Positions 2,077 to 56,539 of a DNA stretch of 64,000 nt are shown here, piece by piece. The position numbers and the translations under genes are program-made. The DNA is from Leucoraja erinacea. Lineage: Eukaryota. The DNA lies in assembly GCF_028641065.1 (NCBI RefSeq), contig NC_073390.1:39866001-39930000 (forward strand), given 5' to 3'. The notes below the pieces were generated by a model, which saw only the letters and a list, made by a program, of their open reading frames with translations, had not been told where the DNA came from and searched no databases. Each line of letters opens with the position of its first letter. Within the stretch, counting starts at the first letter, position 1.

Positions 2077-2450
2077 GGCACAAAAAGCTGGAGTTACTCA
2101 GCGGGACAGGCAGCATCTCTGGACAGAAGGAATGGGTGACGTTTCGTGTCGACACCCTTCTTCAGACTGGCTCGGGAATAAGGGAAACGAGACATATAGA
2201 CAGTGATGTAAAGAGATAAAGAACAACGAATGAAAGACATGCAAAAAAAGTAACAATGATAAAGGAAACAGGCCATGGTTAGCTGTTTGTTGGGTGAAAA
2301 TGAGCTTGCCTAACCAGACCTGAAGAAGGGTCTTGACCTGAAATGTCAGCCATTCCTTCTCTCCAGAGATGCTGCCTGCCCCACTGAATTACTCCAACTT
2401 TTTGTGTCTATCTTCGGTTTAAACCAGCACCTGCAGTTCATTCCTACACA
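2077..2450. mobile_element. Penelope-like-derived fold-back mini-element with hammerhead-like cores
   Basis: Inverted copies of GCTGGAGTAACTCAGCGGGACAGGCAGCATCTCTGGAGAGAAGGAATGGGTGACGTTTC at each end, with hammerhead-like cores on both strands. Confidence 0.7.
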
Positions 2451-2661
2451 TTCTCCAGGTGACAATAGGTTGACTACAGTGGTGGGGTGAAAGTGCAGAA
2501 GGTATTGGATTGATATTCCACTCTGGCACTGGTGGGAATTGAATTCACAATTCTGGACTCAGTTGAGGTCAGTTCACTGATCGAGTAACTTAACCACCAT
2601 ACTGATGGGTGATCTTATCGTGTGTAAAGTCAAGTGGGGAAGAGACCAGGTGAATACACAG

Positions 2662-3170
2662 TGTTTAAGAAAGAATTGCAGATGCTGGAAAAATCGAAGA
2701 AAGACAAAAATGCTGGAATAACCCAGCGGGTCAGGCAGCATCTATGGAGCGAAGGACGTTTCGTGTCATGACCCTTCTTCACTGATGTGGGGGTGGGGGG
2801 CCGTGAAGAAGAGGCGGAGACAGTGGGCTGTGGGAGAGCTGGCAGGGGAGGGGAAAAAGGGAGAAAGCAGGGACTACCTGAAATTGGAGGTCAATGTTTA
2901 TACCGCTGGGGTGTAAACTACCAAAGCGAAATATGAGGCGCTGCTCCTCCAATTGGTGGTGGGACTCACTCTGACCATGGAGGAGGCCCTGGACAGAAAG
3001 GTCGGATTCGGAATGGGAGGGGGAGTTTAAGTGCTGACCACTGGGAGATCAGGTTGGTTATTGCGAACTGTTGGGCGAAGCGATCGCCAAGCCTGTGCTT
3101 GGTCTCGCCGATGTAGAGCAGCTGCCACGTAGAGCAGCGAATGCAGTAGATGAGGTTGGAGGAGGTGCAC
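2662..3170 (-). mobile_element. Penelope-like element fragment (GIY-YIG endonuclease plus pseudo-LTR)
   Basis: CTSSNLIYCIRCSTWQLLYIGETKHRLGDRFAQ (GIY-YIG), followed on the same strand by a decayed hammerhead core and the shared tail. Confidence 0.85.
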
Positions 3171-3617
3171 AGAGTGCACAGAGTCTTTTTCCCAGGGGAG
3201 GGGAATGAAGAACCAGAGGACATGGGTTTAAGTTAATTGGGGAAAAGATTTCACATTTCCATGAGGGGCAACTTTTTCACATTGAGGATGTTGGGAATAT
3301 GGATTGAGCTGCCAGAAGAGGTAGATGAGGCAGGTACAATAACAATTCTGCTCCTATCATTTATGATCTTAGATGGGGGCATTTTGTTTGGCAAGAACCA
3401 GTTGGGCCAAAGGGCCTGTTGCTGTGCTGTAGTACATATGTAATTGTTCTGTTGCCGATACATATGACAATTAAACTCTCTTGACCCTAACTTTTAAAAA
3501 CATGTGAATTGTTAAACTATTTCTAATCTAACAAATGTATTTCTAACATCTACTGTGTTGGATTTGTTTCACAGCATTTGTGATTTATTTAATCTGTGAT
3601 GGTAGCAACTCCTGTGT

Positions 3618-3815
3618 AAGAAAGAACTGCAGATGCTGGCTTAAATCGAAGGTAGATACAAAATGCTGGAGTAACTCAGCGGGTGAGGCAGCATCTCTGG
3701 AGAGAAGGAATGGGTGACATTTCAGTTTGACTCTGAAGAAGGGTCTCTACCCCATTCCTTCTCTCCAGAGATGCTGCCTGTCCCGCTGAGTTACTCCAGC
3801 GTTTTGTGTCTATCT
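3618..3815. mobile_element. Penelope-like-derived fold-back mini-element with 19-bp TSD
   Basis: Inverted arms, flanked by ATGGTAGC(A/G)ACTCCTGTGT at 3599-3617 and 3816-3834. Confidence 0.8.
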
Positions 3816-4014
3816 ATGGTAGCGACTCCTGTGTTTTCCATGGTGTTGCTCAGACAAGGAGGATGTGAATAAAGATCCATGAGGATAGACATGAAATGTG
3901 AATGTCACGAGAGTACAAATAGGGATTAAGACAAGATCTTGTGAAACAGAAGTGTCTAAATTAATTCTAAAACTTAAACTCAGATTTGCCACCTGCAGCA
4001 TTCCTTTCCCTTAC

Positions 4015-5045: not shown

Positions 5046-5355
5046 GCCAGAACAAGAGGTCACAATTTAAGGATAAGGGGGAAATCTTTTAGGACCGAGA
5101 TGAGAAAAACATTTTTCACACAGAGAGTGGTGAATCTCTGGAATTCTCTGCCACAGAAGGTAGTTGAGGCCAGTTCATTGGCTATATTTAAGAGGGAGTT
5201 AGAAGTGGCACTTGTGGCTAAAGGGATCAGGGGGTATGGAGAGAAGGCAGGTTCAGGATACTGAGTTGGATGATCAGCCATGATCATATTGAATGGCGGT
5301 GCAGGCTCGAAGGGCTGAATGGCGTACTCCTGCACCTATTTTCAATGTTTCTATG
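5046..5355 (+). mobile_element. CR1-type LINE 3' end
   Basis: RTRGHNLRIRGKSFRTEMRKTFFTQRVVNLWNSLP plus the GGCTCGAAGGGCTGAATGG tail. Confidence 0.85.
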
Positions 5356-5399
5356 ATCCGCTGAGTTACTCCAGCATTTCTGTCTATCTCAAGAAACTT

Positions 5400-6990: not shown

Positions 6991-7233
6991 AAAATAACCG
7001 TATAAGTTGTACAAGGTAGACAAAAATGCTGGAGAAACTCAGCGGGTGAGGCAGCATCTATGGAGCGAAGGAAAAAGGCGACGTTTCAGGTCGAGACCCT
7101 TCTTCAGACTGAAGTTGTATATGTTGTATAAGTTGTACAACACGCACCCACTAACTGACCACAAATGCTTGCTGTTCTTTCCTGGTTTAACCGAGTGGAA
7201 CATTTGCCACTCGGCATTGTAAAGCTGACTTAC

Positions 7234-7400: not shown

Positions 7401-8124
7401 CCCACCCAACATTGTTATGGTAATTCTGCGTGAACGTGAAGAGTCGTCATTTTCTGTGCTATTATTTTCTGGAATTCAATTCACGCACCATGACAACAAA
7501 ACCTCATTCCATGAGGTTCCTATTTCTGTCCATGAAATGTAAGTCAACCTGCCTCTAATCAAGCAGAAATGTAGGAGCAAAAGGACACCAGATGCTGGTT
7601 TATACTAAAGATAGACACAGAGTGCTGGAGTAAATCAGTGGGTCAGACAGCGTTTCTGGAGAACACGGAGGCTGAAGAAGTATCCCGACCCAAAACCATG
7701 TTTTCCAGAGATGCTGCCTGACCCGCTGAGTTACTCCAGCACTCTGTGAAACGTCATCTATCCATGGTCTCCACAGATGCTGCCTGAACCGCTGAGTTAC
7801 TCCAACACTCTGTGTCTTCAATCCAGGTCAGATCTATCATTAGTTTTTAAAATAACTATTCTTGGTTTTCTTTTGTAAGTCACGATGTATTACTATTCTG
7901 ATAAGTATTTTGAGCACTGGTAATTTCCCTAGTAACGTCCTAAGCACTTAACAGACTCTCGAGGTCCTTGGAATATATTTTGTATATTTTCACATTTGGC
8001 ACGGACATTGTGGGCTGAAGGGCCTGTTCCTTGCTGTACTGTTCCATATTCTCTGTTCAAGCATTTAGACGATAATAACGATTGATTCAAATGTCACTGC
8101 ACGACAATCTCGATGACATTTTCG

Positions 8125-11010: not shown

Positions 11011-11408
11011 CAACAATACACTTTATATGGAGTATTTAAAATGGTGCTGGAATTTATAGCTGTGCCTACTCCTCTTTCGTGGAGCTTGTAAATAAAAGAA
11101 CGCTGGTCAGATGAGACACACAGCACTGTGCCCAGCATTTAATGTCACTGATGATGTAGTTTCCATTTGAGAACAATCAATTATAGATGAGGTGATACAG
11201 TGAAGAACTGCATTTACAAGGATAGTAGGAAGATGTCAGCTTATTTTGTGGAACTACATTATTATCTCTGTATTTTAAATAAAAACACAAGAATGCTGGA
11301 AATTCTAGGATTGGCACTGCGGTTATAAAACGTTACTGAATGATGTTTCTTTTTAGATTTGGGTTAAGGTTTATTATTGGAACATGTACCAAGGTAAAGT
11401 GAAAAGAC

Positions 11409-11627
11409 ACAGAGTGCTGGAGTAACAGCGGGTCAGGCAGCATCTGTGGAGAACATGGATAGGTGACGTTTCACAGAGTGCTGGAGTAACTCAGCGGTTC
11501 AGGCAGCATCTGTGGAGAACATGGATAGGTGACGTTTCACAGAGTGCTGGAGTAACTCAGCGGGTCAGGCAGCATCTGTGGAGAACATGGATAGGTGACG
11601 TTTCTGATCTGGACCTTTCTTCAGACT
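11409..11627 (-). repeat. Three 64-66-bp tandem units plus hammerhead-like head (PLE-derived)
   Basis: Unit GAAACGTCACCTATCCATGTTCTCCACAGATGCTGCCTGACCCGCTGAGTTACTCCAGCACTCTGT on the minus strand. Confidence 0.9.
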
Positions 11628-12404
11628 AATGGGGGAGAAACCTGGAAAGGAGGTGGGAGCAGGACAAAGCCTGACGAGTGATAGGATACAGGCGAGGGCA
11701 GTGGTAGAGTTGCTGTCTTGCAGCAAAATGCGACGCCGGAGACCCGGGTTCGATCCCGACTACGGGCGCAGTCTGTACGGAGTTGGTACGTTCTCCCTGT
11801 GACCTGTGTGGGTTTTCTCCGAGATCTTCAGTTTCCTCCCACATTCCAAAGACGTACAGATTTGTATGCATTTTCCAGCATCTGCAGTTCCTTCTGAAGC
11901 AGGTTTGTATGTTAATTGGTTTGATTAATTGTCTTGAAATGTAAAAATTGCCCAGTATAAAATTGTCCAACTTCCAGTATAGTCCCTGGTGGACTCTTTG
12001 GAAGGCATAAGGTAAAAAAGGGGGGGGGGGGGGGTGTTGGACCAAGGACAGAGATGAAATGTGAAGTCAGAGGGAGGAATGTAGATGGTTCAGCTGTATT
12101 ATTATCACGGGTACTAAAGTACAGTGAAATGCTGTGTTTTGCAAGCTATCCAAACAGAACTGATATACCATGCCTTGATGCAAACAGGTCAAAAGATCAG
12201 ATATATTATACATAAATATAAACAGATTGAAAGATTAGATATATTATACATAAATACAAACTAATCAGATAAGACTGTTCATAATACAATCAAGTACAAT
12301 AGGTAGAGCAATGGGGAAGATAGAGTGCCGAATATAGTTCTTAACAAGTGAAACAGATTAAAACAGTTGAAGCATCTGAGAATATGTGATTGTTGAACAA
12401 TACA

Positions 12405-13285: not shown

Positions 13286-22405
<9,120 letters not shown>

Positions 22406-22734: not shown

Positions 22735-22986
22735 GAAACAAGGAACTGCATATGCTGGTTTGGTGAAGAACAGTACCAACTTGAAACATCACCTATCCAT
22801 GTTCTCCACAAATGCTGCCTGACCCGCTGAGTTACTCCAGCACTGTGAAACGTCACCTATCCATGTTCTCCACTGATGCTGCCTGACCCGCTGAGTTACT
22901 CCAGCACTCTGTGAAACGTCACCTGTCCATGTTCTCCACAGATGCTACCTGACCCGCCAAGTTACTCCTGCACTTTGTGTTTTTTT
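22735..22986 (+). mobile_element. PLE mini-element with three 64-66-bp units and perfect 15-bp TSD
   Basis: TTAACTGATCATGAA at 22720-22734 and 22987-23001; GAAAC at 22783, 22847 and 22913. Confidence 0.85.
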
Positions 22987-24716
22987 TTAACTGATCATGA
23001 AACTCTTTAATTAAAGTCCACTGTTACAAATTATTCTAAATGAGCACACGAGAACAAAAATGCTGGAGAATCTCAGCGGGCGAGGCAGCATCTATGGAGC
23101 GAAGGAAATGGGTGATGTTTCGGGTTGAGACTCCAAGGGTCTCGACCCGAAACATTTTTGCCTACCTTTGATTTTTCTGCATCTGTAGTTCCTTCTTTTA
23201 CATGGCTGTTGTCTTGTTCAGTTGGAACATTTACATTTAGTACGGGCCTCGAGAAAGATATACTGCTGTAAATGTCTGTGTCGAACATGATGCCAAGGCC
23301 AACTCGTATCAGCCTGTACATAATCCACATCGTTCCATTCCTTGCATATTCACTTGCCTATGTAAAAGCCTCTTAAATGACTATTGTATCTGCCTCCACC
23401 ACCACCCCTGACAACGAGTTCCAGGTGCCCTCCGTGTGAAAATACTGCCCTGCTTAGACTTAGACTTAGTTCTTCCCACATTGTTGAGTGCATTGGGCAG
23501 CAAGCTTTCGCCATTCTGTTTGGTTATGTGCAACGTCTTCCACCCTCGATAGGCTTGCGTCCCGGGCTTCCAAATCCTTCTGGAATCTTCGTCTCTATGT
23601 GAGTTTTGGTCGGCCTCTTTTCCTTCTTCTGTCAGGACTGCCCTGCACATCTCCTTTAAACTTTGCCCCTTTCGCCTTAAAGCAATGCCCTCTAGTCTTT
23701 GCTGTTTCTATCCTGGGGAAAAAAGTTTCTGACTGCCTAGCCTATCTATGACACTCAAAGTTTTAATTACTTTCATCAGGTCTCTCCTCAACCTCCAGTG
23801 CACCAGCGAAAACAAATAAGTCTTCCCAACCTTTCCCTGTAGCTCATACTCTCTAACCCTGGCATCCCAGAGTGTTTTACATCTAAATAAGTGCTTCTGA
23901 AATGTAGCCACTTCTGGAATGTGACTACAGCTGCCAATTTATTACTTATGAAATTAGAGTGAAATAGACAATAGGTGCAGGAGTAGGCCATTCGGCCCTT
24001 CGAGCCAGCACTGCCATTCAATGTGACCATAGCTGATCATCCACAATCAGTACCCCGTTCCTGCCTTCTCCCCATATCCCCTGACTCAGCTATCTTTAAG
24101 AGCCCTATCTAGCTCTCTCTTGAAAGTATCCAGAGAACTGGCCGCTGAGGCAGAGAATTCCACAGACTCACAACTCTGTTTGGAAAAGTGTTTCCTCGTC
24201 TCCGTTCTAAATGGCTTACCCCTTATTCTTAAACTTAAAAATAAAACTTGATGTTGGTCGGATTTAAAATATTAGCTATAATACTAATGAGTTAAAATAT
24301 GAGGCTGCACTACCTTAAAAGATTGTGCAGTGAACTAATGGAGGTAAGAAATCAATTGCTGGAGGAACTCAGCGGGTCAAGCAGCACCTGTGGAGGCAAA
24401 GGGATAGTTGAAGTTTTAGGTCCAGACCCTCATCAGGACTAACAGATATGGTGTGCTGAGTCCATAAAACAGCATTTGGATATACACTCCAAAAGCATTT
24501 TATCTCATTCACCAGTTAATAGAAATCTGGAACATGCCAATTTAAAAATTGCAAAAATTAAATTGAAAAATAAGAATGTCACGGGATTTGTAACAAAATG
24601 GACAAAAATGGATTAGGGGCTCAGTACCTCCAAGTTGTAATTGAATGTGGAGCATATCTGTTTGTTCCTTTCAACACACTCTTGATTTGGGTAGCTGACA
24701 ACCTGAGACGCATTTT

Positions 24717-25058: not shown

Positions 25059-28000
25059 GTGAGGGGGTGAGGAGAGGAGGGGAGAGAGGGAGAGGGGAGG
25101 GGGTGAAAATAATGAGGGAATGGTGAGGAGGGAGGGTGGGGATGAAGGGTTATGATGAGGTGGGGGGGGGGGGGGATGAGGAGGAAGGGGTGAGAAGAGA
25201 AGGTGAGGGAGGAGCTCGGGGGGGAGAGGGTGAAGAGTGATGGCGGTAGGAGGTGGGTAAGGGCAGGGGGTTGAATGAGGAGGTGGGGAGGAGGTGGGGG
25301 GGGGGGGGGCTGGGGGGAGAGGAGGGGGGGGGGGACTGACATGGGTATCATGCGATGTCAAGTGATAACATGGATATAGTGTAGGACACAAAATCATGGC
25401 TCATGACAACCTCTGCCGACCTCTGGTTTGAGCAACCATTGGCAGTCACGGTGGCACAGCGGTAGAGTTGCTGCCTTAAGGCAAAATCCAGGTTCGATCC
25501 CGACTACGGGAGCTGTCTGTATGGAGTTTGTACGTCCTCCCCGTGATCTACGTGGGTTTTCTCCGAGATCTTCGGTTTCCTCCCACATTCCAAAGACGTA
25601 CAGGTTTGTAGGTTAATTGGCTTGATAAAACTGTTAAAAAAATGTCCAAGTGGGCGATATGCAGAGTACTGCCCTGCCGACTACGAAATTCAGAAGGTTC
25701 AGAAGGTATTCTATTGGAGACAATTCAAATGTTGCCTGACAGACCTTTGAAGGACATTTGGACAGGTAGACGGATTGAAAGACATTTGGACAGGTGTATT
25801 CATTGGAGGACATTTGGACAGGTGCATGGATTGAAGCACAGTTGGACAGGTGCGTGGATTGAAGCACAGTTGGACAGATGTGTGGATTGACAGACAGTTG
25901 GACAGGTAGATTGATGAGTGCGCTGCAATGTGCTGCTGGGGATGGTGTTGGAAGCAGATACCAGAATGACCTTTGGTCTTGGCATGGTGTTCGACATAGA
26001 CATTGTGCGCCGACGGACTTGTTCCTGCTCTGTACTGTTCCACATTCTATGTTCTATTTGGACAGGTACATGGATTGAAAGACATTTGTAGGCACAGGAT
26101 ACCACAGACGTTGCAATCTGTAGCAAAAAGGAGAATAGCCGGAGGAACACAGCCAATCTGGCAGCATCTGTGGAATGACAGTTTGACAGTTGGCATTTTG
26201 AGTTGACATCATTCAGCTCGTATGGAAGGGTAGAGGGAAGGAGCTTGTGTAAAGTGATGGAGGGGTGGGGCAAAAGCTGGTAAGTGATAGGTTCCCATCT
26301 GCTCTTTCAGCTGATTGATGATGTGTCCCATCTCGAAATATTATCTGTCCATTTTCCTCCCTGACTGATCCACTGAGTTCCTCCAGCTGTTCTCCTTTTA
26401 TGCATCATATATATATATTTAATGTTATGGGGTATGCATAGACATTTGTATATACTTGTCCATTGATGAATTTACTGGTGTGTTTAGAGACTCTTGCTGG
26501 CTAACGGTTTAAATATCTTCTATCTGAGATAACGCGTGGTTGTGCCATATCCAGTTTCCTCATCAGGAAACTGACCTCGTAATGTAGATGGAACACAGTC
26601 ACCCGAGATAAAGAAACGTATTCAGCATCAAACCAATCTCTAGAGACAATAGACAGGAGGTGCGGGAGTAGGCCATTCGGCCCTATGAGCCAGCACCGCC
26701 ATTCACTGTGGTCATGGCTGATCATCCCCAATCAGTACCCCGTTCCTGCCTTCTCCCCATATCCCTTGCGGGATATCTCGAGCAAAATTAATTTAATGTG
26801 GTCATTTCCATTCAATGCTTCTCTAATTATTGTGCGATTTATTTTGCTCCAATCTGTAATTCATTCTGTAATTCATTCTTTCATACAGAGAATTGTGTGT
26901 CTTTGGAATTCTCTGCCTCAGAGGGAGGTGGAGGCTGGTTCTCTGGATACTTTAAAGAGAGAGCTAGATCGGGCTCTTAAAGATAGGGGAGTCAGGGGAT
27001 ATGGGGAGAAGGCAGGAATGGAGTACTGATTGCGGATGATCAGCCATGATCACAGTGAATGGTGGTGCTGGCTCGAAGGGCCGAATGGCCTACTCCGGCA
27101 CCTATTGTCCATTGTCTATTGTCTATAGAACCATTTAGCATCCATGGGTGAATTCTGAAGCTTGTGTCTGTCTTTGGTAATGGAAGTAAAAATGCTTTGT
27201 AATTTGGAAATAGATTGTATTTTAAAACAGAGAGTTCCACACTGTGTATGTGACAATAGACAATAGGTGCAAGAGTAGGCCATTCGGCCCTTCAAGCCAG
27301 CACCGCCATTCAATGTGATCATGGCTGATCATCCACAATCAGTACCCTGTTCCTGCCTTCTCCCCATATCCCTGACTCCGCTATCTTCAAGAGCCTATCC
27401 AGGTTTCTTTTGAAAGTATCCAGAGAACCGGCCTCCGCCACCCTCTGAGGCAGAGAATTCCACAGACTCACAACTCTCTGCGTGAAAAAGTGTAGGAATG
27501 AACTGCAAGAGGTCTGGTCTGAAGAAGGGTGTCAAGCCGAAACGTCACCCATTCCTTCTCTTAAGAAACGCCTTTTGTGCCTATTTTCGGTTTAAACCAG
27601 AATCTGCAGTTCCTTCTTACACAAACTGCTAGAGGAAGTAGTTGAGGCAGATACAATAATAACGTATAAAATACATATGGACAGGTACATATGGACATAG
27701 GTACATATAACATATAAAATACATATGGACAGGGCAAATGGGACTAGCTGAGATGGGGCATCTTAGTTGGCATGGGTGTGTGGGTCCAAAGGGCCTGTTC
27801 CTGTGCTGTGTGACTCTACGACTCGATGGTTTATATCTTTCTCTGTGTCTCCTATAAATAATGACTTTACCACTTCATGTGTCTTCAGTGCGGGCAAATT
27901 GGAGAGAAAGCGTTAATCTTTTTTCTGCCATTCTATTGCTCTTAATCTGACCATACAATTTTACTGGGGCAACAGCATTAGTGAAAAAAACACGAAGAAG

Positions 28001-34000: not shown

Positions 34001-37000
34001 TCAATGTGATCATGGCTGATCATCCACAATCAGTACCCCGCTCCTGCCTTCTCCCCATATCCCCTGACTCCGCTATCTTTAAGAGCTCTAAACATTAATG
34101 AATTAAATACCTATATTTAGTATATGAGGGTGAATTATTTAACATTGTGGATGACATATTAATGAGAATATAGACCTGATCTGTTGTCCTGAACAATAAT
34201 AATAGTGACAAAATAAAATCCCATTTAAAACTGACCTTTTCACTTTTTGATGCTCTTGCAAACCACTGGAATTCTCTTGTCACATATAAGGGTCGTTTGG
34301 TATGGTACGGCACTTTACTTGTCACATGTACCGAGGTACAGTGAAATTCATTTTTGTGAACAGTTCAGTACAAGTGTCACTGTACATAAGCACTGAGATG
34401 CATCTTAGATAAGCATCAGAGATACAGTACAAGTGTATAGCACTAGTAAATAAAGTGAAGAATGTCATTCAGATGTAATGTTTCGAAACAATGATTCTTG
34501 GGGATTAATGACAACACTTTGTTTTTAGGAAATTTTATGTACTTCATGGGATATTCAAAATGGTTACTTCTTGGTAGTCGACTTGTCGCAGGTAAGACAA
34601 AGTTACAAGCAGCTTCCATAGGAACTCTTCCATTGTTTATCTTTCTCAATTATTTATTTAATTTACTTTGTGATCCTCGTAAAGTTGCTGAGATTTTGAT
34701 TGTATTGAGCTGTCGTGTAAAAGTTCAATTTAACGGAGACGGGAGTGATTACTTTTTGTTCTCCAATGAGCATTTCTGAACAGGTGTTGAACATTTGATT
34801 CTAGTAAATGATGCTGTACATGGCCCTCGCAGGAAAAGCAATGTGCTTGTTTCTTTGCAGGCATTGGGACGGGTGCTGGCGCGTGTATTTTTGGATATCT
34901 TACTCGGTCTACCTCTACAGGGGAACGGGCTACAGTATTTGCAGTCGTCATGGCTGCGCGGCAGGCTGGCCTGTTGATTGGTAAGTAAATAGAACCTAGA
35001 ACAGCACAAGAATAGGCCCTTCGACCCACAATGTCCGTGCACAGCATGATTTTAGTTTTTTTAGTTTCAGAGATACAATGCGGAAGCAGGCCCTTCGGCC
35101 CACCGAGTCCACACCGACCGACGATCCCAGCACAATAGCACTATCCTACACACGCTAGGGACAATTTACACTTTTACCAAGCCAATTTACCTACAAACAT
35201 GTATGTCTTTGGAGTGTCGGAGGAAACCGAAGATCTCGGAGAAAACCCACGCAGGCACAGGGAGAACGTACAGACAGCACCTGTAGTCAGGATTGAACCC
35301 GGGTCTCTGGCCATCCGTGCCGTGATGCCAAGTTAAATTAATCTCCTCTGTCTATATGTGATCCATATCCCTCCATTCCGCGCATATCCATGTGCCTATC
35401 CAAAAGCCTCTTAAATGCCACTTTTGTGTCTGCTTCTACTGCCACCCCTGACAGCGAGTTCCAGGCACCCATCACCCTCTGTAAAAACAAAAATGCATAC
35501 TTCAATAACTCAGCAGATCAAACGACATCTCTGGAGAAAAGGAATAGGTGACATTTCAGGTCGAAACCCTTCTTCCGTCTCGACCCGAAACATGACCTAT
35601 TCCTTCTCTCCAGATATATTGCCTGTCCCACTGAGCGACTCCAGCTTTTTGTGTCTATCCTCGGTTTAAACTATCATCTGCAGTTCCTTCCCATGCATAC
35701 TTTAATGCCAGATTCAAGTCTCTATTCCAAATATTAGTTTAGAGAGCAACATGTGAGAGTGTTGATACACGATAGACTGCTGCTTACTTCCTCACACATG
35801 CAGTTTACATACACATGAAGGGCAAGAAGGCATCGGTGAAGACACTGCCGTATTGCTTTGCCATGTTAATGAGATGTAGAATGTGTAATGAAGTGTGTGG
35901 GAGGTACCAAACTTGTCCAAAAATAATTTGCGTAGATTTTTAGAATTTAATTTTGCACGGCCAATTCCGCAAGGAAGCTGAGCATAACACAGTGCTGGGG
36001 GAGCTCAGCGGATCAGGCAGCATCTGTGGAGGGAATGGACAGATAATGTTCCGAGTTGGGACTCTTCAGTCTGACAGAGTGTCTATATCCTCCTCAGATG
36101 CTGCTGTTCCTCCAGCACTTGGTGTTCTGCTCAGGATTCCAGCACCTACAGTTCCTTGAACCCCAACAAGGAAAGCAGACTGACATTTTCCAAATGTAAA
36201 CTTGCTTCTACCTCACTGAGGTAACTTTGTAAGCATCCACATATTTAGCAGGGGGGTCAATTAATCCATAACATTTTACAAAATTAAAATATTTTTTTAA
36301 TTTTTACTCATTTTAGGACCAGGTTTTAATTTATTCCTGAGACTTTGCAACTTCAATCTGGGGCCATTTAAAGTCAATAAATACACATCACCTGGGGTAA
36401 GAATTGCTCTTTATTTTTAAAATATATTATTTTGTAAATGTATGTACTATTAAAAGTTAAAATAAGATTTAATTGAGGCATGTACTATAACACCTGGCGC
36501 AGTATGTGGATAGGAATGGTGCAGAGGGATTAGAGCTAAACGTGGGTAAATTTGGAATAGCTTAGATGGAGCTTTCTGGTCAGCACGAATGAGTGGGGCC
36601 GAAGGGCCTGTTTCCATGCTGTATGACTTTAAGTTATGTTAGACAGCAGAGCATAAACAAATGGATGTACTCATGCCTTGTACTGGTTCTTTTTTACTTT
36701 ATTACAAATGTTGTTAACAATTAAAAAGAGAAACTTGGGGAATTCGTGTCAGAGCTTAAAAGCCAGTCTTATTAGCTAAATCACAACCAGTATGCAGACA
36801 AGTAATAATAATAATAATAAATTTTATTTATGGGCGCCTTTCAAAAGTCTCAAGGACACCTTCCAGAATAAAAACAAGACTAAAAAAAACATATAATCGG
36901 AGTAAAATAAATAATAAAGACATCACCAATATACAAATTAAAGACAGAATTCAATCCAAAGACAAAAAAATCAAAAACACAATGTGAAGAGAGAGCAGCA

Positions 37001-40000
37001 TCAGCTAAACCGCGCCAGCGTACACTCTCCCTTCCGACAGCCATCTTGGACACAGAGTAAAATAATTATTTACACACAGTGACACAGCGGGAGAGTCCCG
37101 GGTTCGATCCTGACTACGAGTGCTGCCTCTGCAGATTTGGAGGTTAATTGGCTTCTGTCCCTCGTGTCTAGGATAGAACTAGTGCATGGGTGATCATTGG
37201 TCAGCGCGGACTTCGTGGCCTGAAGGTCCTGTTTCCCTGCTGTATCTCTAAACTAAACTAAACAAGTGGCTGAATGAATGTGAACCTCTAAGATTGCTTC
37301 GGACTTATGATTTGATTATTAAAGGCACTAAGCCAAAAGTGTGTTTGTTCTCGAGAGATCACCTTGTCTGAAGAAGGGTCTCGACACGAAACGTCACCTA
37401 TTCCTTCACTCCATAGATGCTGCCTTTTTTGCTCACCAGCATTTTTGTCTATCTTTCAAATCATTGGTATTTTAAATCCAAACATTGAACCGAGCGATCC
37501 AAGACTATTGAGGCTCGCCTTTTAGGAAAAAAATGGACTTTTGCTTTCATGTAATTCACTGTGTTTTGAAAGATATCTAATTGGCAGATGGGTAGAGTAA
37601 GTCTCAAAGGCTGAAGGTGAAAAGAAACAAAATGGTCTCAGATAAGTAAAGGTACACACAAAAAGCTGGAGTAACCCAGCAGGACAGTCAGCATTTCTGG
37701 AGAGAAGGAATGGATGATGCTTCAGGTCGAGACCCTTCTTCACACTGAAGTCTTCAGAGATGCTGCCTGTCCCGCTGAGTTACTCCAGGGTTTAGTATCT
37801 ACCACCGGTTTAAATCAGCATCTTCAGTTCTTTCCTACTTGGATAAGGAAAGATGAGGAGGAGTGAAATGTAAAGCCAGAGGGAGTGATATGGGTGGAAA
37901 GTTTGGTCTAACTAAGAAACCAAAGTCTGAGGGATGGTCCTGATCCCAAACATCGCCAGTCCATTCCCTCCGCAGATGCTGCCTGACCACTGAGTTCCTC
38001 CAGCACTTTGTGTTTTGCGCAAGATTCCAGTATCCGTAGTCTCTCCTGTCTGAACTCTTTCTCATTTTATTACAGCTGTTCATGTGTTTAATGTGGACTA
38101 TTCTGCAAGTGATCATTATCTTCATGTACTATGACCTTCCGTTGGTTCCCGTGGACAATTGCAAAGTGGTTTCTGTTGAAGAAGAAGAAGAAGAGCCTCT
38201 GATTGGCGGTGTTGGAGACAGCAGCCGGTGCAGCACTGCTATTGAACACGACAAATCTCACGTCCCACCAACAAGTGAAACGGTCGGCGAGAATAGCGCA
38301 GCCGATGAAGATCACTACATTCCCAATGGCCACATCGAAGACAGTAAAACCAATAATAATCCATTTCACAATTTTAGCGCTGCAAAAGGTAGGTATCAGT
38401 AATCGAGATAAACTCTAATGCATTTGTGCCATCCTGTATTCAAAGCAACAACAAACTCAGAGCTAATGGAGGTACAAGATAACACCTTGTGCAAGACACT
38501 AAATGCTGGAGGAACATACGAGCGTGTTGCCACGACTTGAGATATTGGGAACTAGATTCTTGCACTCCTAAATCCATCTCCCCTCAAACACTCCCATCAG
38601 TTTTTATCACCCTTTTGTTTTTAAATTTCAAAATAGACTTTATTTGAGAAATAAATATATACAGTGCATGATCCTTACAAAACTTCATCTGACATTCTCA
38701 GAGGCTCTACATACATACAATACAGTTTCAACAAATCACAAATTTATCCCCCACCCTTGCCACTCATGTGGCCCACTGGCGTGGAATCCCTTCCCTTATT
38801 TTGAGGGGCATCTCCACCACACCCTGCCCCCCATGTCCAGCAGCGGAACAACGCTAGACTGTGGTCCTCCCCCTCCCCCCCATCGAGCCTTGGCGTTGGC
38901 TGCACCGAGCTTCAGTGCGTCCCTCAGCATGTACTCCTGCAGTCCGCAGTGGGCCAGTCGGCAACATTCCCCGACGGCCATCTCTGCTCCGCTGGGTGGT
39001 CAACAACGCTCGGGCAGACCAAAGACCGCCTTTCACCGCGTTGATGACCTTCCAGCAGCACTCGATGTCAGTGTCTGAATGCGTCCCTGGGCTGCTCTAG
39101 TAAAGATGCCATTAAGCTGGAAAGAGTGCAGGGAAGATTTACGCTGCTGTTGCCAGGGCTCGAGGGTCTGGACTATAGGGAGAGGATGAGCAGGCTGGAA
39201 CTTTGTTTGTTGGCATACAGGAGGCTGAGGAGGTGATCTTGTAGGGGTGAATAAAATCATGAAGGGAATAGTTAGGGTGAATGGACAGCCAGTCTTTTAC
39301 CTGGGGTATGGGAATCAAGAGCTAGTGGATATAGGGTTAAGGTGAGAGGGGAGAGATTCAATAGGAACCTGAGGGGTAACTTCTCTGCTTAGTACATGGA
39401 ATGAACTGCCAGAGGAGGTAGCTGAGCCGGGCACTGTAACCGCATTGAAAAGGCACGTGGATGGGTACATGGACGGGAAAGGTTGGGAAGGATCTGGGCC
39501 AAACACGGGCAAATGGGACCAGCTTAGATGGGGCATGTTGGTCAGCATGGACAAGTTGGGCTGAAGGGCCTGTTTCAGTGCTGTGTCGATCTTTGACTCG
39601 ATGAATATAGCGGGTCAGATGCTGAGTTCCTCTAGCACTGTCCTTTAAACCCAATTCTGTTTCCCAGGGTCAGTGTGTGTACTCGTGCACACCCTTGAGA
39701 TTTCTATTTGCATTTTCAAGTTTTTCTTAACTCATTAATTTAAATAGCTATCTGTACTGCTCAGATTTGAAATTTAAATCTGCATCTCTCTTCAGCTAGT
39801 GTTTGCCAATGATTGAAAATATCAGTATTGAAACGTGTGTTCCTGATTTAATGTTTCAAATCTGTGCAGTTTCAAAGATAGTTTTATCTCTTTTGAATTG
39901 TAATGGGGTTGAGAAATATATTGTTCCCAATACTGATGCAACAAGTGTAAATAACATGCAAGCACAAATATTTCACTGTGGGAAGTCTGAAGCTTTTAAA

Positions 40001-43000
40001 CATAATTTATCCCTTTGCATATTCTTCATCAATGACATTATCTTTCAAATCTATTTTAGCACCATTTGTTGCTTTCACTGAACACACTGAAGCTCGGTGC
40101 AGCCAACGGCAAGGCTCGTGTGGGGGAGGACCACAGTCTTGGGTCCTTCCGCTGCCGGACATGGGAGGCAGGGTGTGGTGGAGACGCCCCTCAAAATAAG
40201 CACGCTGACCATCGATCCACCTGTTCAAACTAGTTCTATGTTGTCACACTTTTGCATCCACACAATATGTACCAGCGGTAATTTACAGAGGGCCAATAAA
40301 CCAACAAACCTGCAGGAAAGAACTGCAGATGCTGGTTTAAATCGAAGGTAGACACAAAATGCTGGAGTAACTCAGCGGGACAGACTGAAGATGGGTATCG
40401 ACCCTAAACGTCACCCATTCCTTCTCTCCACTGATGCTGCCTGTCCCGCTGAGTTACTCCAGCATTTTGTATCCACCTTTAACCTGCCATCTTTGGAACG
40501 AGGGAGGAAACCGGAGCACCCGGAGAAAACCCATGCAGCTGCAGGGGGAACATGTAAACTCTGCACAGACATAGAAACATAGAAAATGGGTGCAGGAGTA
40601 GGCCATTCGGCCCTTCGAGCCTGCACCGCCATTCAATATGATCATGGCTGATCATCCAACTCAGCATCCTGTACCTGCCTTCTCTCCATACCCCCTGATC
40701 CCTTTAACCACAAGGGTCACAGACAGCATCCAAAGTCAGGATTGAACCTGAATGAATGAATGAATGAAAGAGTTAAAGTTTTTGTACTTCAAAAAGCCCA
40801 TGACTGCAATCTGCAAAACTGCAAAACTGCACTGTGATTTTATTCTTAGTTCTAGTTTATTAGTGTGATTTTGCAGATCAGTTTTGACAGTCCCAATGTG
40901 CCACCTTGTGGACAAAAGATTTTTCTCCGAGTACCATAGATCTATCCAACTTATATGAATGTATTTGCCTATTATACGTAACAAGTATTAGCAGCAAAAA
41001 CATTTTATTTTAAATTTTCCATGAAAGAAAGTTGGCTGGCATTATGAACTCCACTGGGTTAGGTAATGGTCATTGGCCAAGACTGACCATGGGTGATGCA
41101 TCCTAGTCGGATGCTAGCCTGGGCGATGTCATATGGAGGGCAGGCTGTTGCCCATGCAGCAAGTTCCCCCTCTCCACATTGCTGATCGATCCAAAGAAAC
41201 AGCAGGGCCGTTACAGTTTGGCACCAGCGCCGTCGCAGGAGCTGCCAGAGCGAATTTGTAGATAACGACGAACTGCCTTAGGGGCTCTGTCTCCGGATTT
41301 TCTTTACTCCAGGAGCCTTATCCATGACTGGATACGGCCACAAGGCAGTGGAGGTTTTAAATCGGAGTTTTCCCTCTCCTAGATGGACTGCCTTCCCAGG
41401 CTGACGAGCCCCATCTGACCGAGACTCGTGGGGGCGGGAGCGTCTACCTTCCCGTGCAGGTCTATAGCACCTGCCCACTGCCTTTAATCAAAGGGAATTA
41501 AAAACCCCATTGTGTAGGAGGGAATTTACACTGAAAAAAGACACACAATGCTGGAGTAGCTCAGTGGGCCAGGCAGCATCTCTGGAGAAAAGGAATAGGC
41601 GTTTTGGATGGAGACCCTTCTTCAGATGGGTCAGTAAAAACTCCCAACGATTGGACTGAAGCCATGTCGGAAGGAAGGTGAAGGTTGTGCAAAGTACTAT
41701 TGATACAGACTCATTGTATATCATAACAAGTACTTTAATTGGAATACATACGGAGACCATCGAAATGAGTATTGTAGGCTCTGAGTCATAGGTTGAACTA
41801 ACCAACATGGCTGCCCGCATTTCACCAGGTGGTAGTGTGGAAACCTAACATGGATTATGGATCAGGTCAGCAGCAAAACCAGATGGATCAAATCAGCAAT
41901 ACTGTTTGATCTATAAAGGTTGTAGGAGAAGATCATCGCGCCCCCTGGAGTTCACCTGGACAGTGACCTAGTCCCAGCCCACTCCAGCTCCTTCATCAAT
42001 GAGCCTTCCTTACATCATGCGGTCAGTGGGGACCACCCACAGCGCAGAAAACACTGAGCTAATTCTTAGCTTTCTCAAAATATCTAGTCAGGGTTTTATT
42101 TTTGTCTTTTACTACTCAACCAGTAAGTTGACAGAATCATTACCCATCTGTTGTAGAATAGTCTGAAAAAGAGTTCCGACTCAAAAGTCACCTATCCGTG
42201 TTCTCCAGAGATGTTGCCTGACCCGCTGAGTTACTCCAGCACTATGTCTATCTTGTTGTAGAAAACATCTGATTTTTACATTTCAATAAAACAAGTGTTC
42301 ACAATAAACACAAATCCATTGTATCTTATTGAAACTTCCAGTTTTGTTAAATTCATTATTTAATCAGTCAGTGTTTTTATTTATTTCAGAATATCTACGC
42401 GAGGAAGTGGTTGTTGTATTGACAGCACAATTCATTACTCTCTTCAATCAGACTGCACTAGAGGTATTCAACACTCCACTGTAGTCAAGCACTCAGTCGA
42501 AGTAAGGGTGTGATGGCATTGTGGCTTGGTGCTGGACGTGTAATCCAAGGTGTACCTAATAAACCAAAGTCGGAGAGATGGCCCCGACCTCATGCACCGC
42601 CTGTCCATTCCCTCCACAGAGGCTGCCTGACCCGTTGAGTTCCTCTAGCACTCTGCGGTTTGCTCAAGATTCCAGCATCTGTGGTCTCTTGTGTCTCTCA
42701 TAAACTGAAGTTACAGCTGCTCTTTTCATAATCCTGGACCCAAAACCTGGCATTGTAAATGTGGCCAATGCATTTACTGATTTATAAACTCACCTGACAT
42801 AGACACAAAAAAGCTGGAATAACTCAGCGAGTCCGACAGCATCTGAAGAAGGGTCTCGACCCGAAACGTCACCTATTCCTTTTCTCCAGAGATGCTGCCT
42901 GATCCTCTGAGCCCTAGGCCACCATTGAAGGTGATCCTCAGGGGCCTGTTCTCAGCACAAACTCCACTGTATACAGAACTTGGGTCTCTGGCTGCGCTGC

Positions 43001-48272: not shown

Positions 48273-48336
48273 TTAAAATGTCATGAACTCGAGTAGGAGT
48301 GTACAAGGTAAAACTAAGGGGCAAAAGTATAACTGT

Positions 48337-48622
48337 CTGAGGAAGGGACCCGACCTGAAACGTCACCTATCCATGTTCCCTAGACATGCTGCCTGACCCG
48401 CTGAGTAACTCCAGCACTCTATGAAACGTCACCTATCCATGTTCTCCACAGGTGCTGCCTGACCCGCTGAGTAACTCCAGTACTCTGTGAAACGTCACCT
48501 ATCCATGTTCTCCACAGGTGCTGCCTGACCCGCTGAGTAATTCCAGCACTCTATGAAACGTCACCTATCCATGTTCTCCACAGATGCTGCCTGACCCGCA
48601 GAGTTACTCCAGCAGTCTGTGT
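48337..48622 (+). repeat. Hammerhead-like head plus four 66-bp tandem units
   Basis: CTGAGGAAGGGACCCGACCT, then GAAACGTC at 48357, 48423, 48489 and 48555. Confidence 0.92.
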
Positions 48623-49593
48623 CTTCAATTTAGTTTAGTTTAGAGATACAGCGCAGAAACAGGCTCTTTCGGACCACTAGGTCCGTGCCAACCAGTGATC
48701 CCCGCTCATTAGCACTATCCTTTACCCACTAGGGATAATTTCAACATTTACCAAGCCAATTAATCTACAAACCTGCACGTCTTTGGAGTGCGGGAGGAAA
48801 CAGAAGATCTCGGTGAAAACCCACGCAGGTCACGGGGAGACCGACAAACTCGGGACAGACAGCACCCGCAGTCAGGATCGAACCCGGGTCTCTGGCACTG
48901 CAATCATTGTAAGGCAGTAACTCTACCGCTGCGCCACCGTGCCCGCCCAAAGGTGCTCTGTTTTCTCCCACAGCCCAAAGACGTGCGGGTTTGTATGTTA
49001 ATTGGCCCTCTGTAAATTGTCCCGAGACTACAGGGATTGGATGAGAAAGTGGGACAGCCCAGAGCTGGTGTGAAGGGTGATCAATGGTCGACCAGTGCCG
49101 CAGGTCCTGTTTTTGTGCATTTTTTAATCAATATGACGGTAAATGTATGAAAAATAGGAAATAAAACTGGTGGCTAAATGATACTATTAATTTGCCTTCC
49201 ATCACAGTGAGGAACGCGATTCCACTGTGGTGGATGTTTATTTTACATTTATTGTGTATTGTGTTCTTTTTACTTGTTTGGCAACTCAAATATCACTGTA
49301 TCTTATTTGGTGCATGTGACGATAAATGTGAACAAACTTGGTCTAAGTGAGAGTAAATGACTGGAGGTTTATCAATGTAGTAAACTGAATGATCAGCATC
49401 ACTTCTGTGTCACAAAGAGAAATATCCATGATCAATTCCTAGCAAGAATCAAACTGGAGTGGGTGGGAAATTGAGAATAGGCGATGGATGGTCAGCATTT
49501 ACTCAGTGGGCTGAAGGGCCTGTTTCCATGCTGTATCTTTCTGAACGTTGAATCCTTGAATTTGAGGTAACTTCTACCTACACTCTCCCCCCC

Positions 49594-49629
<36 letters not shown>

Positions 49630-51102
49630 ATTAAAAAGCTCCACGGTTCACACCGTGTATTTCTCTTTGGTCATGCCGTCACTCGCCAACAGTTGGTCTA
49701 TCAGGGAACCTCCCTGCCTGAGGCCATCTGTTGGTGGCTCTAATTTGTCCCGGTCTTCTTGCTTTCAATCCCCCCCCCCCCCACACACATCCTAAAGCCA
49801 ATACCAACCCCAAAACATCTCCTATTGTGTTCTAGGGAGACAGAAATGCTGGAGAAACTCAGCAGGTGAGGCAGCATCTATGGAGCGATGGAAATAGGCA
49901 ACGCTTCGGGTCGAGACCCTTCTTCAGACTCAATACTCCTATAGTGTCGTCACTTGCGGGCGGAGCACCAAGGCAAATTCCTTGTATGTGAATACTTGGC
50001 CAATAAACATATTAATTCATTAATTAATTGGTTGATTATACTTTTCCTCTCGAGGTGCTGCCTGACCCGTAGAATTACTCCAGCACTTTGTGTCTATCTT
50101 TGACATAAACCAGCATCTGCAGTTCCTTTTTATTTTATTACAGCAACTTTGTGGTTTAGAAAGATCACAAAAGGCTATTTGACAACTCTGGCTTGCCTCA
50201 GTTCAGAAACATTACCGATATTTCCTAAACATTTCCCACTGTTGTTCTTTCTGCCTGATCCTGTTAAATCAAATCACATGATACACAAGTACAGTCAGAC
50301 CATGCACAAGTAGAGCAGGTAGTGCAAAGAGAAAGAGACCAGAGTGCAGAACATAGACTTACAGCGTTATAGCATTTCAGTTGCAGGGAAAAAAGTGCAA
50401 GGTTGGCAATGAGGTAGGTTGGAAGATCAGAGCTACACCCTTAGCTTATGGGACGTCAGTTCAGATGTCTGATAACAGAGGGGAAGAAGCCGTTGCTGAA
50501 TCTAGTGGTACATGCTATCAAGCTGCCCGACGGGAGAGGGAAGAGGAGGGAATGACCAGAGAGGTGTGAGTGGGCCTTGATTATGTTGGTTACCTTCTCA
50601 AGGCAGCGGGAAGTGTAGATGGGATTCGATGGTTGGGAAGCCGGTCTGTGTGACGGACTATGCGATATAGTATTTAGAGATGAAAATATTATAAACCATC
50701 GATGCATGTCCCCTGTTTTATAACCTGAACCAGTTGATTAACTGTAGGTAAAGAACTGCAGGTGCTGGTTTAAATCGAAGGTAGGCAAAAATGATGGAGT
50801 AGCTCAGCGGGACAGGCAGCATCTCTGGAGAGAAGGAATGAGTGACGTTTCAGGTGAGTCTGAAGAAGGGTCTCGACCTGAAGCATCTGCAGGAGATGCT
50901 GCTTCCTTCTCCAGGTGATGCTGTCTGTCCCGCTGAGTTACTCCAGCATTTCGTATCTACCAGTTTGATTAACTGTTCAGTTGTCATCTACCCACAATGA
51001 TTCTTTTTTTGCCTTGTCATATTTTAATTTCTAGTGCATTAAAATGAAAATGAGTAAAATGTTGATTTGCACAAAATGTCTTTTTTTTCTCCCCCTTCAC
51101 AG

Positions 51103-52350: not shown

Positions 52351-55300
52351 TTACTGCACTATACACTGGCGGTGCTGGCTCGATGGGCCGAATGGCCTAC
52401 TCCTGCACCTATTGTCTATTCCATCTGCCACTTCTCTGCCAACTCTCCCAACCTGTCCACGTCCTTCTGCAAGGTCCCTGCTTTCTTTACACCACTACCT
52501 GCCCCTCCACCTCCACACCAGCCAGACTCCACGCAGACAGCACCAGTAGTCAGGATGGAACCCGGGTTTCTGGTGTTGTGAAGCAGCAGCTCCACCAGCT
52601 GCACCACCATGCCACCAAAGACCTGTGTGGGGTTTGCACCTAAAGTGCCTGTTTCTATGCTGTATGATTCCGTGACTCATAAGAATGGTATGTACGAGGA
52701 AAAATGCTGCACAGCTACTTGAAATGGATATCTACTGTCTATTGTTCAAGAAGGAACTGCAGATGCTGGATAAAATTGAAAGTAGACAAAAAATGCTGGA
52801 GAAACTCAGCGGGTGAGGCGGCATCTATGGAGAAAAGGAGTAGGCGACGTTTCGGGTCGAGACCCTTCAGACTTATGTCGGGGTGGGAAAAAAGGAAGAG
52901 GCGGAGACAGTGGGCTATGTGGGATGTTGCTAAACTGTCTTCGAAGAGAGGAGGAGAACTTCTTCAAAGTAGACTTGCCTTGAGGAGATTTCGCAGTGTG
53001 GTAGACAAAATGTTTAAGGAACTGCAGATGCTGGATAAATCGAAAGTAGACAAAAAATGCTGGAAAAACTCCGCGGATGGGGCAGCATCGATGGAGAAAA
53101 GGAGTATGCAACGTTTCTGGTTGAGACCCTTTTTCCAACCCCCCACCCCTGACATCAGTCTGAAGAGTCTCGACAGCCGTCTGTGGCAAAGAATTCCACA
53201 GATTCACCACCCTGTTTGGGATGTGCACGTATTTCATACAAACATAGAAAATAGGTGCAGGAATTGACCATTCGGCCCTTTGAGCCAGTACAGCCATTGA
53301 ATATGATCATGGCTGATCCAAAAATCAGTAGAATCAAGGAAAGAGCGTTCACGTGGCGGCCCTATTTCCACTAATCTTTCCACCACCACGCACAAGAAGC
53401 GACAAAACAGACACCATTGCATGCAGAAGCCGAGGAGTGTGTAGCTCTGGCTGAACAACTTCGAATCTTGTGTGTATGGACTCGACAAGAGGAAGTATCC
53501 CGTTCCTGCTTTTTCCTCCATATCCCTTGATTCCCAAGAGCCACATCCAAAGTCTCTTGAATTCATCCAGTGAATTGGCCTCCACTGCCTTCTGTGGCAG
53601 AGAATTCCACAGATTCTCAACTCTGGGTGAAAATGTTTTTCCTCATCTCAGTCCTAAATGGTCTACCCCTTATTCTTAAACGGTGACCCCTGGACTCCCC
53701 CAACATCGGGAGTATTTTTCCTGCATCAATCCCTTAAGAATTGTATATGTTTCTATAAGATATCCTTTCATTCTTCTAAATTCCAAGCTCTGTCGATCCA
53801 TTGTTTCAGCTCCTTGCCTCCAGTGGGAGGCCCATTTTAACCAGGCTTATGCTGGCAAGGGCCAGGGATTTATTGATTTTTCATTGTCAATCAAATGAGG
53901 AGTTTTGGTTTCTAACCGGTTAATTATTTCTGTGTTCAGCAAACACAGAGAAATACTGGAGCAGGGAGGGGCAAGCGAATCAGATCAACACTGCCTCCAC
54001 GACCGAAGAGAAAATCCTTTAGGGAAAGCCTAAGAGAAATCCCTTGCCTTGAACACGCTGGAACAATTATTTTGAGGGGAGCAAGCAGAAATATGCTTTC
54101 CATCCTAGCTTGTTTTCCTGAAATTATGTATTTTGAGCCAAATTTATTATTGTGGTTCTATTGTAATATTATTGTGGTAATATTATTAGTATATTCCAAA
54201 ATATTTGATATCTGTCTTATTCTAAAGTTGGAAAGCAGAAGATATTCACCAGGATGTTAACATCTCTGCGGAGAAGGAATGGGTGACGTTTCGGATTGAG
54301 ACCATGCTTCAGACGAGAGTCAGTGGAAATGGAAATGAGAGATATAGACAGTGATATACATTCAGCCCTTCGAGCCATTCAATGTATCCCTTTAAACCGA
54401 AGATAATAGACAATAGGGGCAGGAGTAGGCCATTTGGCCCTTCTAGCCAGCACCGCCATTCAATGTGATCATGGCTGATCATCCCCAATCAGTACCCCGT
54501 TCCTGCCTTCTCCCCATATCCCCTGACTCCGCTATCTTTAAGAGCCCTATCCAGCTCTCTCTTGAAAGTTTCCACAGAACCGGCCTCTGAGGCAGAGAAT
54601 TCCACACTCACAACTCTGTGAGAAAATATGTTTCCTCACCTCTGTTCTAAATGGCTTACCCCTTATTCTTAAACTGTGGTGTAGAGAGATATAGAACGAA
54701 AAATAGTCTGAATGGTCATGTCACCCATTCCTTCACCCCAGAGATGCTGCCTGTCCTGCTGAGTTACTCCAGCATTTTGTGTCTAATCTTTGGTTTAAAC
54801 CAGCATCTGCAGCTCCTTCCAACAGCAGGATGTTACCTGGGCTTGTGGGCTTGAGTTACAGGGTTGGATAGGCTGGGCCTTTTTTTTCTTTGGAGCGTGG
54901 GAGGCTGAGGGGTGACCTTGTTGAGGTGTACAAGATCATGAGGGGCACGGATAAAGTGTCTTTATCCCAGGGTAGAGGATTCTAAAACTAGAGGGCACAG
55001 GATTAAGGTGAGGGGAGAGTTTTGAGAGGGACTTCAGGGGCAATTTATTTTCAGTCGGAGGGTCGTCCGTATCCTGAACGAGTTGCCAGAGGAAAGTATA
55101 GCAGTGGATACAATGACAGCGTTTAAAAGACATTAGGACACATATATGGATAGGAAAATTTAAAGGGATGTGGGCCAGACTTGCTCAGTATGGACATGGT
55201 GGGCCGAAGGGTCTGTTCCCATGCTGCACCATTCTATGATTCTGTGCTCAAGGAAAATAAATGTAGAGCCAAAGGGGTAGGAAAGAACTGCAGATGCTGG

Positions 55301-56354: not shown

Positions 56355-56382
56355 CTGAAGAAGGGTCTCGACCCGAAACGTC
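56355..56382 (+). ncRNA. Minimal hammerhead ribozyme motif
   Basis: GU-CUGAAGA-A-GGGU-CUCG-ACCC-GAAAC-GUC-AC. Confidence 0.7.
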
Positions 56383-56539
56383 ACCTATTCCTTCGCTCCA
56401 TTGATGCTGCCCCACCCGCTTCTTCTTCTTCTTCTATGTAGTTTTTTTTGGCGGTTGGCAAACAACTTTTTAGTGCATTACCGCCACCAACTGGTATGGA
56501 GTGTGGATCAAATAACATTATAACTTATATACTAATAAC

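Follow-up and report, generated by a model that had tools for sequence, protein, structure and literature searches.

The short insertions that recur across the 64-kb stretch of skate DNA analysed here (hereafter the window) are a real and dense set of short insertions of Neptune-type Penelope-like elements (PLEs) and not a new class of element. We consider it likely that these stubs are dead-end insertions of the terminal repeat (pLTR) of PLEs of at least four subfamilies, made by the PLE reverse transcriptase (RT)-endonuclease (EN) itself. All counts below come from this one window with hand-set anchors.

Arms and their PLE origin

We built an arm profile from 16 window copies, scanned the window with it and obtained 84 arm matches that occupy 6,966 bp, or 10.9% of the bases (14.3% with the attached 3' UTR and ORF pieces), corroborating the very high local density claimed in an earlier note on this DNA. 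By hand count the matches correspond to ~55 loci, 16 of which were scored as fold-backs; all ten fold-back sites listed in the note are fold-backs, and its description of the insertions as mostly two inverted copies is wrong, because single arms and tandem arrays are commoner. A candidate fold-back at 27490-27621 was rejected and reclassified as a single arm because its 'left arm' is host sequence, which we take to be a CR1-like repeat. Read in the sense of the element, an arm runs from the CUGA core through stem II, GAAAC-GUC and ~70 nt to an optional tail of ~30 nt, so the core, which the note had placed as a spacer between the arms, is in fact the 5' end of one arm. A 28-nt core gave 15 window matches at ≤3 mismatches and none in 100 shuffles. 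The 3' ends of the 84 matches cluster at profile columns 85-99 (38 matches, including 13 or so internal tandem units) and 120-127 (26 matches), which gives two alternative arm 3' ends ~30 nt apart. The arms fall into four subfamilies, A to D, lying mostly 3-20% from their own majority sequence with a few older ones further off, and fold-backs are present in all four. Neither of two scans of prokaryotic genome contigs turned up an arm copy (0 matches).

We identify the arm as the pLTR, or 3' terminal repeat, of a Neptune-type PLE. As the note had observed, it lies directly 3' of GIY-YIG ORFs, which we located at 19596-19919(-) (Pfam PF01541, E 7e-5) and, frameshifted, at 2887-3169(-) (tblastn), the subfamily B arm beginning ~90-105 nt past the ORF. 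This endonuclease linkage is limited in the window to subfamily B, and subfamilies A, C and D could therefore be non-autonomous. Another GIY-YIG fragment, at 21754-22138(-), has a CX4CxxC linker motif (tblastn); a CX2-5CxxC motif in the RT-EN linker is a mark of both Neptune and Nematis PLEs (PMC8557442) and cannot tell the two apart. Neither a full-length PLE nor a PLE RT fragment was found in the 64-kb window. Among eight protein matches to the endonuclease the closest were two Leucoraja erinacea gene models, at 76% and 83% identity, in agreement with the batoid host suggested in the note, and full-length relatives with RT and GIY-YIG stand at 45-50% EN identity. Of 17 database proteins that translate the arm, 6 have a sense piece immediately preceded by an antisense one at junctions that vary, these matches being short and the query having favoured arms that start at the core. 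The L. erinacea gene model for fermitin family homolog 1 (P0166) contains a translated PLE arm in mid-protein, which is probably an annotation artefact or an exonisation.

Judged from its sequence, the core meets the minimal type I hammerhead description of PMC4209133, the predicted parts being CUGANGA, an extra base, stem II with G10.1-C11.1, GAAA, the palindromic 15.2-16.2 and NUH; the note's proposal of a PLE origin and of a pLTR with a minimal hammerhead is supported. A strict core descriptor found six intact copies in the window, most copies being decayed. In the predicted pairing 86.7% of cells are paired against 9-46% once slid; helix I has 2 bp only, is 76.7% paired and shows covariation not above that of shuffles (271/500). 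Five copies folded singly gave no hammerhead fold (z -0.8 to 0.5). Rfam returned nothing in the window at the gathering level and no hammerhead match, and for two core-bearing stretches searched at E up to 10 it gave chance hairpin matches only.

Subfamily C also forms arrays of one 66-bp unit, present in 2 to 5.6 copies after a single core and with the same junction at five loci (7674-7823, 11408-11604, 14263-14634, 22782-22979 and 48356-48618). The units begin at GAAAC and are without CUGA and stem II, leaving one core per array, and the array is a pLTR-born minisatellite. A cis-active hammerhead made of the first core and the next 66-bp unit found no support in the one array folded (constrained -5.6 versus unconstrained -20.4 kcal/mol). 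Several other features were recorded. The segments 5235-5400 and 14635-14801 (167 bp, 93% identity) each combine the end of another repeat, a PLE arm piece and 10 bases, and the pair looks like a 3' transduction or a small duplication. A long frameshifted LINE at 56450-61440(-) has AP endonuclease, RT and RNase H domains and is, presumably from this architecture, I/Nimb-like; the long ORFs at 56581-59229(-) are part of this LINE and unrelated to the PLEs. A reading frame at 32060-32617(+) that matches the Major Facilitator Superfamily under the curated cut-off (E 4e-6) is probably a host exon. At 24710-24899, 25747-25907 and 62826-63085 lie unrelated minisatellites of 40 bp and 28 bp and an assembly gap of 260 N.

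Structure of the insertions

The fold-back at 3618-3815 consists of two arms head-to-head with their 3' ends outward, folds as DNA with z = -16.6 (0 of 200 shuffles as good) and is flanked by the 19-bp target duplication with one mismatch that the earlier note had quoted and that we confirmed (Table 1). The note's hammerhead is not intact in this copy: the right arm has lost 11 nt including GAAACGTC, and the left arm ends short of CUGA. Its junction (+13/-8) is nearly that of the fold-back at 50749 (+12/-3), and the two could share a parent.

Table 1. Coordinates of PLE-derived features in the window
Feature	Position	Strand	Details
Left target-site duplication	3599..3617	+	19 bp, 1 mismatch to 3816-3834
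Inverted pLTR arm, subfamily A	3618..3730	-	30-nt tail; 5'-truncated ~+13 from hammerhead C3
Direct pLTR arm, subfamily A	3732..3815	+	CUGA-site start; tail-less; 11-nt internal deletion
Right target-site duplication	3816..3834	+	
Fold-back A/A	2077..2451		Left arm tail-less, ~90-150 nt into 3' UTR; right arm from CUGA, tailed
Fold-back C/C	7578..7820		Right arm with 66-bp tandem unit
Fold-back B/B within SINE-like repeat	17004..17197		Duplication 9 exact (14 with 2 mismatches)
Three-part insertion	17533..17812		Truncated tail-less arm + complete B arm + inverted A arm; 10-bp duplication
Older fold-back D/D	18458..18646		
Fold-back	22735..22985		Left piece tail-only; right C arm, three 66-bp units; 15-bp duplication
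Fold-back B/B	23052..23198		Joined within hammerhead stem II; right arm internally deleted
Fold-back A/A	35503..35692		10-bp duplication
Fold-back D/D	35985..36158		
Fold-back A/A	37650..37838		11-bp duplication, 1 mismatch
Fold-back A/A within SINE-like repeat	40314..40480		
Fold-back A/A	42797..42912		Right 3' end missing; intact core at 42843
Fold-back A/A	50749..50962		Duplication 12 exact; junction nearly as at 3618
Fold-back B	53013..53177		Right arm from 31 nt into 3' UTR, cut by later repeat
Fold-back A/A	54240..54823		Split by later repeat
5'-truncated PLE copy, subfamily B	19420..19919	-	GIY-YIG endonuclease C-terminus, 3' UTR, intact core, arm
5'-truncated PLE copy, subfamily B	2665..3172	-	Frameshifted GIY-YIG, arm + tail
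Broken PLE fragment, armless	21754..22138	-	CX4CxxC linker motif + GIY-YIG (Neptune/Nematis type)
PLE 3' end, subfamily B	56220..56420	+	Last EN codons, 3' UTR, intact core, part arm
Single tail-less arm	7013..7113	-	15-bp duplication + short filler
Single tailed arm, split by later repeat	20312..20687	+	15-bp duplication, 2 mismatches
Single tailed arm	27517..27621	+	12-bp duplication, 1 mismatch
Single tail-less arm (C)	42160..42254	+	10-bp duplication
Single tail-less arm (B)	49836..49930	-	12-bp duplication, 1 mismatch
Tail-only insertion, ~28 bp	11869..11896	+	12-bp duplication, 1 mismatch
Subfamily C copy (3' UTR, three 66-bp units)	11398..11700	-	
Subfamily C copy (3' UTR, 5.6 units of 66 bp)	14160..14634	+	
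CUGA-starting subfamily C copy (four 66-bp units)	48335..48628	+	

For the quantification of target duplications, the 37 curated elements were compared with 250 mismatched flank pairs; a score of ≥8 was reached by 15 of the 37 elements and by 1.6% of the mismatched pairs, which supports the earlier claim that the insertions entered as units, and 22 of the 37 elements have no clear duplication. The other duplications quoted in the note were recovered in full at 7000/7126 (15/15), 22720/22987 (15/15) and 35493/35693 (10/10), and in part at 50729/50959, where 12 bases match exactly (50734/50965) and the proposed length of ~17 bp requires a one-base indel. Three of the PLE insertions, a tail-only piece (11857-11911), a B fold-back (16992-17211) and an A fold-back (40300-40487), sit at nearly one position close to the end of a SINE-like repeat found in 12 copies, a possible target preference. 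At 7108-7125 and 27513-27516 the 5' junction holds a short filler similar to the target duplication next to it, as templated end joining would give.

The insertions follow several rules. A tail is present on exactly one outer end in 12 of the 12 fold-backs that have both ends intact (0.5^12 = 2e-4), the four with a damaged end being left out, and both arms belong to the same subfamily in 13 of 14 pairs (permutation mean 5.9, p = 4e-5). At the junction the two arms overlap by 0-7 nt in 11 of the 16 fold-backs, and the remaining five have gaps, filler or later insertions. Among the 44 core-bearing arms (a count that omits core-less arms, internal tandem units and the old weak matches at 26134, 26317, 42580 and 46909), 31 have no PLE sequence upstream (extension score ≤7.5) and end within ~7 nt upstream of CUGA, and 13 carry 31 to >400 nt of upstream PLE sequence (score ≥12.6); just one further arm end lies between -8 and -40. 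In 15 of the 16 fold-backs one arm starts within -9 to +2 of hammerhead C3. The inner ends of the second arm, measured from C3 in those 15 fold-backs, are spread over -92, -40, -31, +10, +12, +13, +23, +28, +31, +31, +33, +40, +47, +56 and +101. In 9 of 12 fold-backs the arm without a tail starts at the common site and the tailed arm is the shortened one. Hammerhead cleavage as the source of the 5' ends was rejected, the ends showing no clustering at +27.

The two arms of a fold-back differ at 97 of 585 non-CpG sites (0.166), close to the 0.172 of random same-subfamily pairs (12 pairs, p = 0.38), implying that the copies are old and that the hairpin is not maintained; selection or conversion keeping the arms alike was rejected on the same comparison. 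Shared derived bases are in weak excess in arm pairs (0.017 versus 0.009 for random same-subfamily pairs), and at p = 0.03 only this does not separate one-RNA from two-RNA templates.

Proposed mechanism and alternative explanations

The mechanism that we propose is carried over by analogy from in vitro work on a Poseidon element, unlike the Neptune type found here. The PLE enzyme would cut the target in a stagger of 7-19 bp, cDNA would be primed from one or both target strands, and RT would begin inside the RNA at one of two sites, giving tail-less (~+95) or tailed (~+125) ends. Synthesis would usually halt after ~100-130 nt, on reaching the 5' edge of the hammerhead (TCAG-T-CTGA). A lone cDNA would leave a single arm, and two cDNAs, one per start site and strand, might be joined 5'-to-5' via 0-7 nt of microhomology with one arm trimmed, which would leave a fold-back with a tail at one end only. 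Such copies would end at the RT start sites, probably without the downstream binding region, and would decay neutrally and probably not be remobilised. In the in vitro system, PLE protein nicks and extends both target strands, RT starts at two internal sites that bound the tail and requires the RNA beyond them, and hammerhead cleavage is dispensable for activity (PMC11167929). The element studied, PAc (Poseidon, Anolis), resembles the stubs in that its start sites lie ~100-130 nt past the hammerhead, in the use of both target strands and in that cleavage is unneeded and absent from RNA reads; it differs in belonging to another clade, and the main text of PMC11167929 reports no fixed cDNA stop. 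In our predictions an arm-tail helix was found in two of the three tailed copies folded, and it cannot fully form without the tail.

The sequence at the common 5' site is palindromic and also resembles both an initiator motif and a splice acceptor, and the candidates for what fixes the stop are an RT stop at the palindrome, an RNA 5' end and a splice acceptor. The second is a variant of our explanation that differs in what fixes the end: the site would be the true 5' end of the PLE RNA (TC-A-GT, +1 at -3), and the stubs would be strong-stop cDNAs run off the first pLTR of the transcript. The motif agrees with the initiator consensus YYANWYY, and the 31 body-less arms match the element at -1, -2, -3 and -4 in 22, 22, 19 (A) and 10 (C) cases, falling to background past -3. 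Penelope of D. virilis has an internal pLTR promoter, but transcription starts there 46 nt ahead of a 75-nt intron, a long way upstream of the hammerhead (PMC2377424). However, 3 of the 16 fold-backs (2077, 53013 and 54240) have one arm that ends at the site and a partner that continues beyond it into the 3' UTR for 31 to >90 nt, and if both arms were copied from one RNA, this read-through would make the site a pause and not an end. We therefore favour a pause and treat an RNA end as a tentative possibility. It is also conceivable, and in our view doubtful, that the site serves as a 3' splice site (a CAG behind a pyrimidine tract) at which bound splicing factors or a spliced junction stop RT. 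All 13 body-bearing copies are 70-87% pyrimidine at -35 to -6, two of the three B copies examined have a donor-like AG/GTAG 90-106 nt upstream, and the D. virilis intron runs up to the 5' end of helix I of the hammerhead (PMC4209133). Against this, no upstream exon is joined to the site (extension scores of ≤7.5 in the 31 body-less arms), the extra segment of the gene model P0166 starts elsewhere, and no spliced, intron-less copies were recognised in the window.

The fold-backs might also arise by self-priming, where the cDNA snaps back at the TCAG-T-CTGA palindrome to form a perfect hairpin that later suffers one-sided deletions at its apex, giving the variable junctions. Self-priming has been proposed from palindromes at inverted junctions (PMC3846280). 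The palindromic nature of the common site, the CTTCAG directly upstream of it in 4 of 31 arms and the one subfamily shared by both arms in 13 of 14 pairs would all be expected. Yet a snapped-back copy cannot exceed its template, whereas in 9 of 12 fold-backs the deleted arm carries the tail and the complete arm has none; an apex deletion should often cut both arms, whereas 15 of 16 fold-backs keep one arm to -9 to +2; and the insertion at 17533-17812 combines subfamilies. We consequently regard self-priming as unlikely. The earlier note had preferred a single non-autonomous, MITE- or retrozyme-like fold-back family, which would spread as units from master copies, possibly via small or circular RNA. 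Non-autonomous derivatives of PLEs have been published (10.64898/2026.07.22.740005; PMC8557442), target duplications flank whole units, the junctions at 3618 and 50749 nearly coincide, no ORF is linked to subfamilies A, C and D in the window, and the arrays of subfamily C have one 66-bp tandem junction in common. A master-derived family, however, should share its junction, and the fold-backs do not: the second-arm breakpoints range from -92 to +101 over four subfamilies, leaving the family claim largely unsupported. Moreover, the arms of a pair have diverged like unrelated copies of the same subfamily (0.166 versus 0.172), there is no tandem with a full core per unit as retrozymes have, the 5' ends lie off the cleavage site, and the hairpin terminals are PLE 3' ends and not the TIRs of a DNA transposon. 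The note had made its family depend on breakpoints that are not random, and here the result is divided, since the second-arm junctions vary while one end lies at a sharp common site. We judge a master family to be improbable.

Relation to known elements and significance

Like the stubs, MITEs are short, non-coding, fold-back elements with target duplications. The stubs differ from them in having no fixed length, junction or duplication size (one near-shared pair of junctions was found, and no uniform length), in ending at retroelement 3' ends and in having no link to a transposase. Non-LTR retrozymes are likewise non-coding, pLTR-derived and hammerhead-bearing, and the short tandem arrays of subfamily C resemble them (10.64898/2026.07.22.740005; PMC7761336); they are defined by units repeated head-to-tail, two or more successive ones each having a full hammerhead (10.64898/2026.07.22.740005), whereas the copies here occur singly or head-to-head, and CUGA and stem II are missing from the 66-bp units, with one core per array. 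EN+ PLEs of the Neptune clade share the C-terminal GIY-YIG with a linker Cys motif, 5' truncation, partial tandems, an inverted 5'-truncated copy, a 30-40-nt tail at one end, solo pLTRs and palindromes at inverted junctions (PMC8557442; PMC3846280; PMC8969392); the inverted 5'-truncated copy, the one-sided tail and the duplication were found here in 16 fold-backs, 12 of 12 and 15 of 37, respectively. Their target duplications are 8-10 bp in A. vaga versus up to 19 bp here. The window differs in that stubs of 100-230 bp dominate (10.9% of its bases), that 5' ends fall within ~7 nt of CUGA and that no full-length copy is present.

The predicted hammerheads resemble the minimal type I motifs of PLEs in CUGANGA, the extra base before G10.1, G10.1-C11.1, the palindromic 15.2-16.2 and the missing loop 3 (PMC4209133), and in being mostly dispersed single motifs (PMC4209133; also PMC7761336 and PMC6765202). 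They differ in a helix II of 4 bp and a helix I of 2 bp instead of the described 4-5 bp, as predicted from copies that are mostly decayed. Pairs of hammerheads on opposite strands 100-700 bp apart have been read as truncated PLEs (PMC4209133), and PLEs are reported as expanded in whale shark introns (10.1101/443036). In the literature consulted, with subscription papers outside its scope, we found no account of the skate family or of a fixed 5' stop. The family may well be catalogued in Dfam or Repbase, and the inverted copy, the tail and the duplication are known PLE traits; the fixed 5' stop beside CUGA, with the tail-less arm at the stop in most fold-backs, is new relative to that literature.

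As a family, the stubs are an expected product of PLE biology. They enter gene models such as P0166 and may carry the wrong label of MITE, microRNA hairpin or unknown repeat. With a tail at one end, one subfamily per pair and a fixed 5' stop, they also offer a test bed for PLE integration, where the origin of tandem and inverted ends is described as unresolved (PMC8557442). We put forward, as a speculation, that abortive PLE cDNAs have left a very large natural record in the skate genome, with a defined 5' stop and two defined start sites, in which each fold-back pairs two cDNAs of one RT dimer, made on opposite strands and from different start sites. If this is true, cDNA pairs from an RT dimer would account for both the inverted copy and the tail on one side that PLEs generally show, and the common site would mark, at the hammerhead, an RNA 5' end or a strong-stop-like intermediate that has gone unrecognised.
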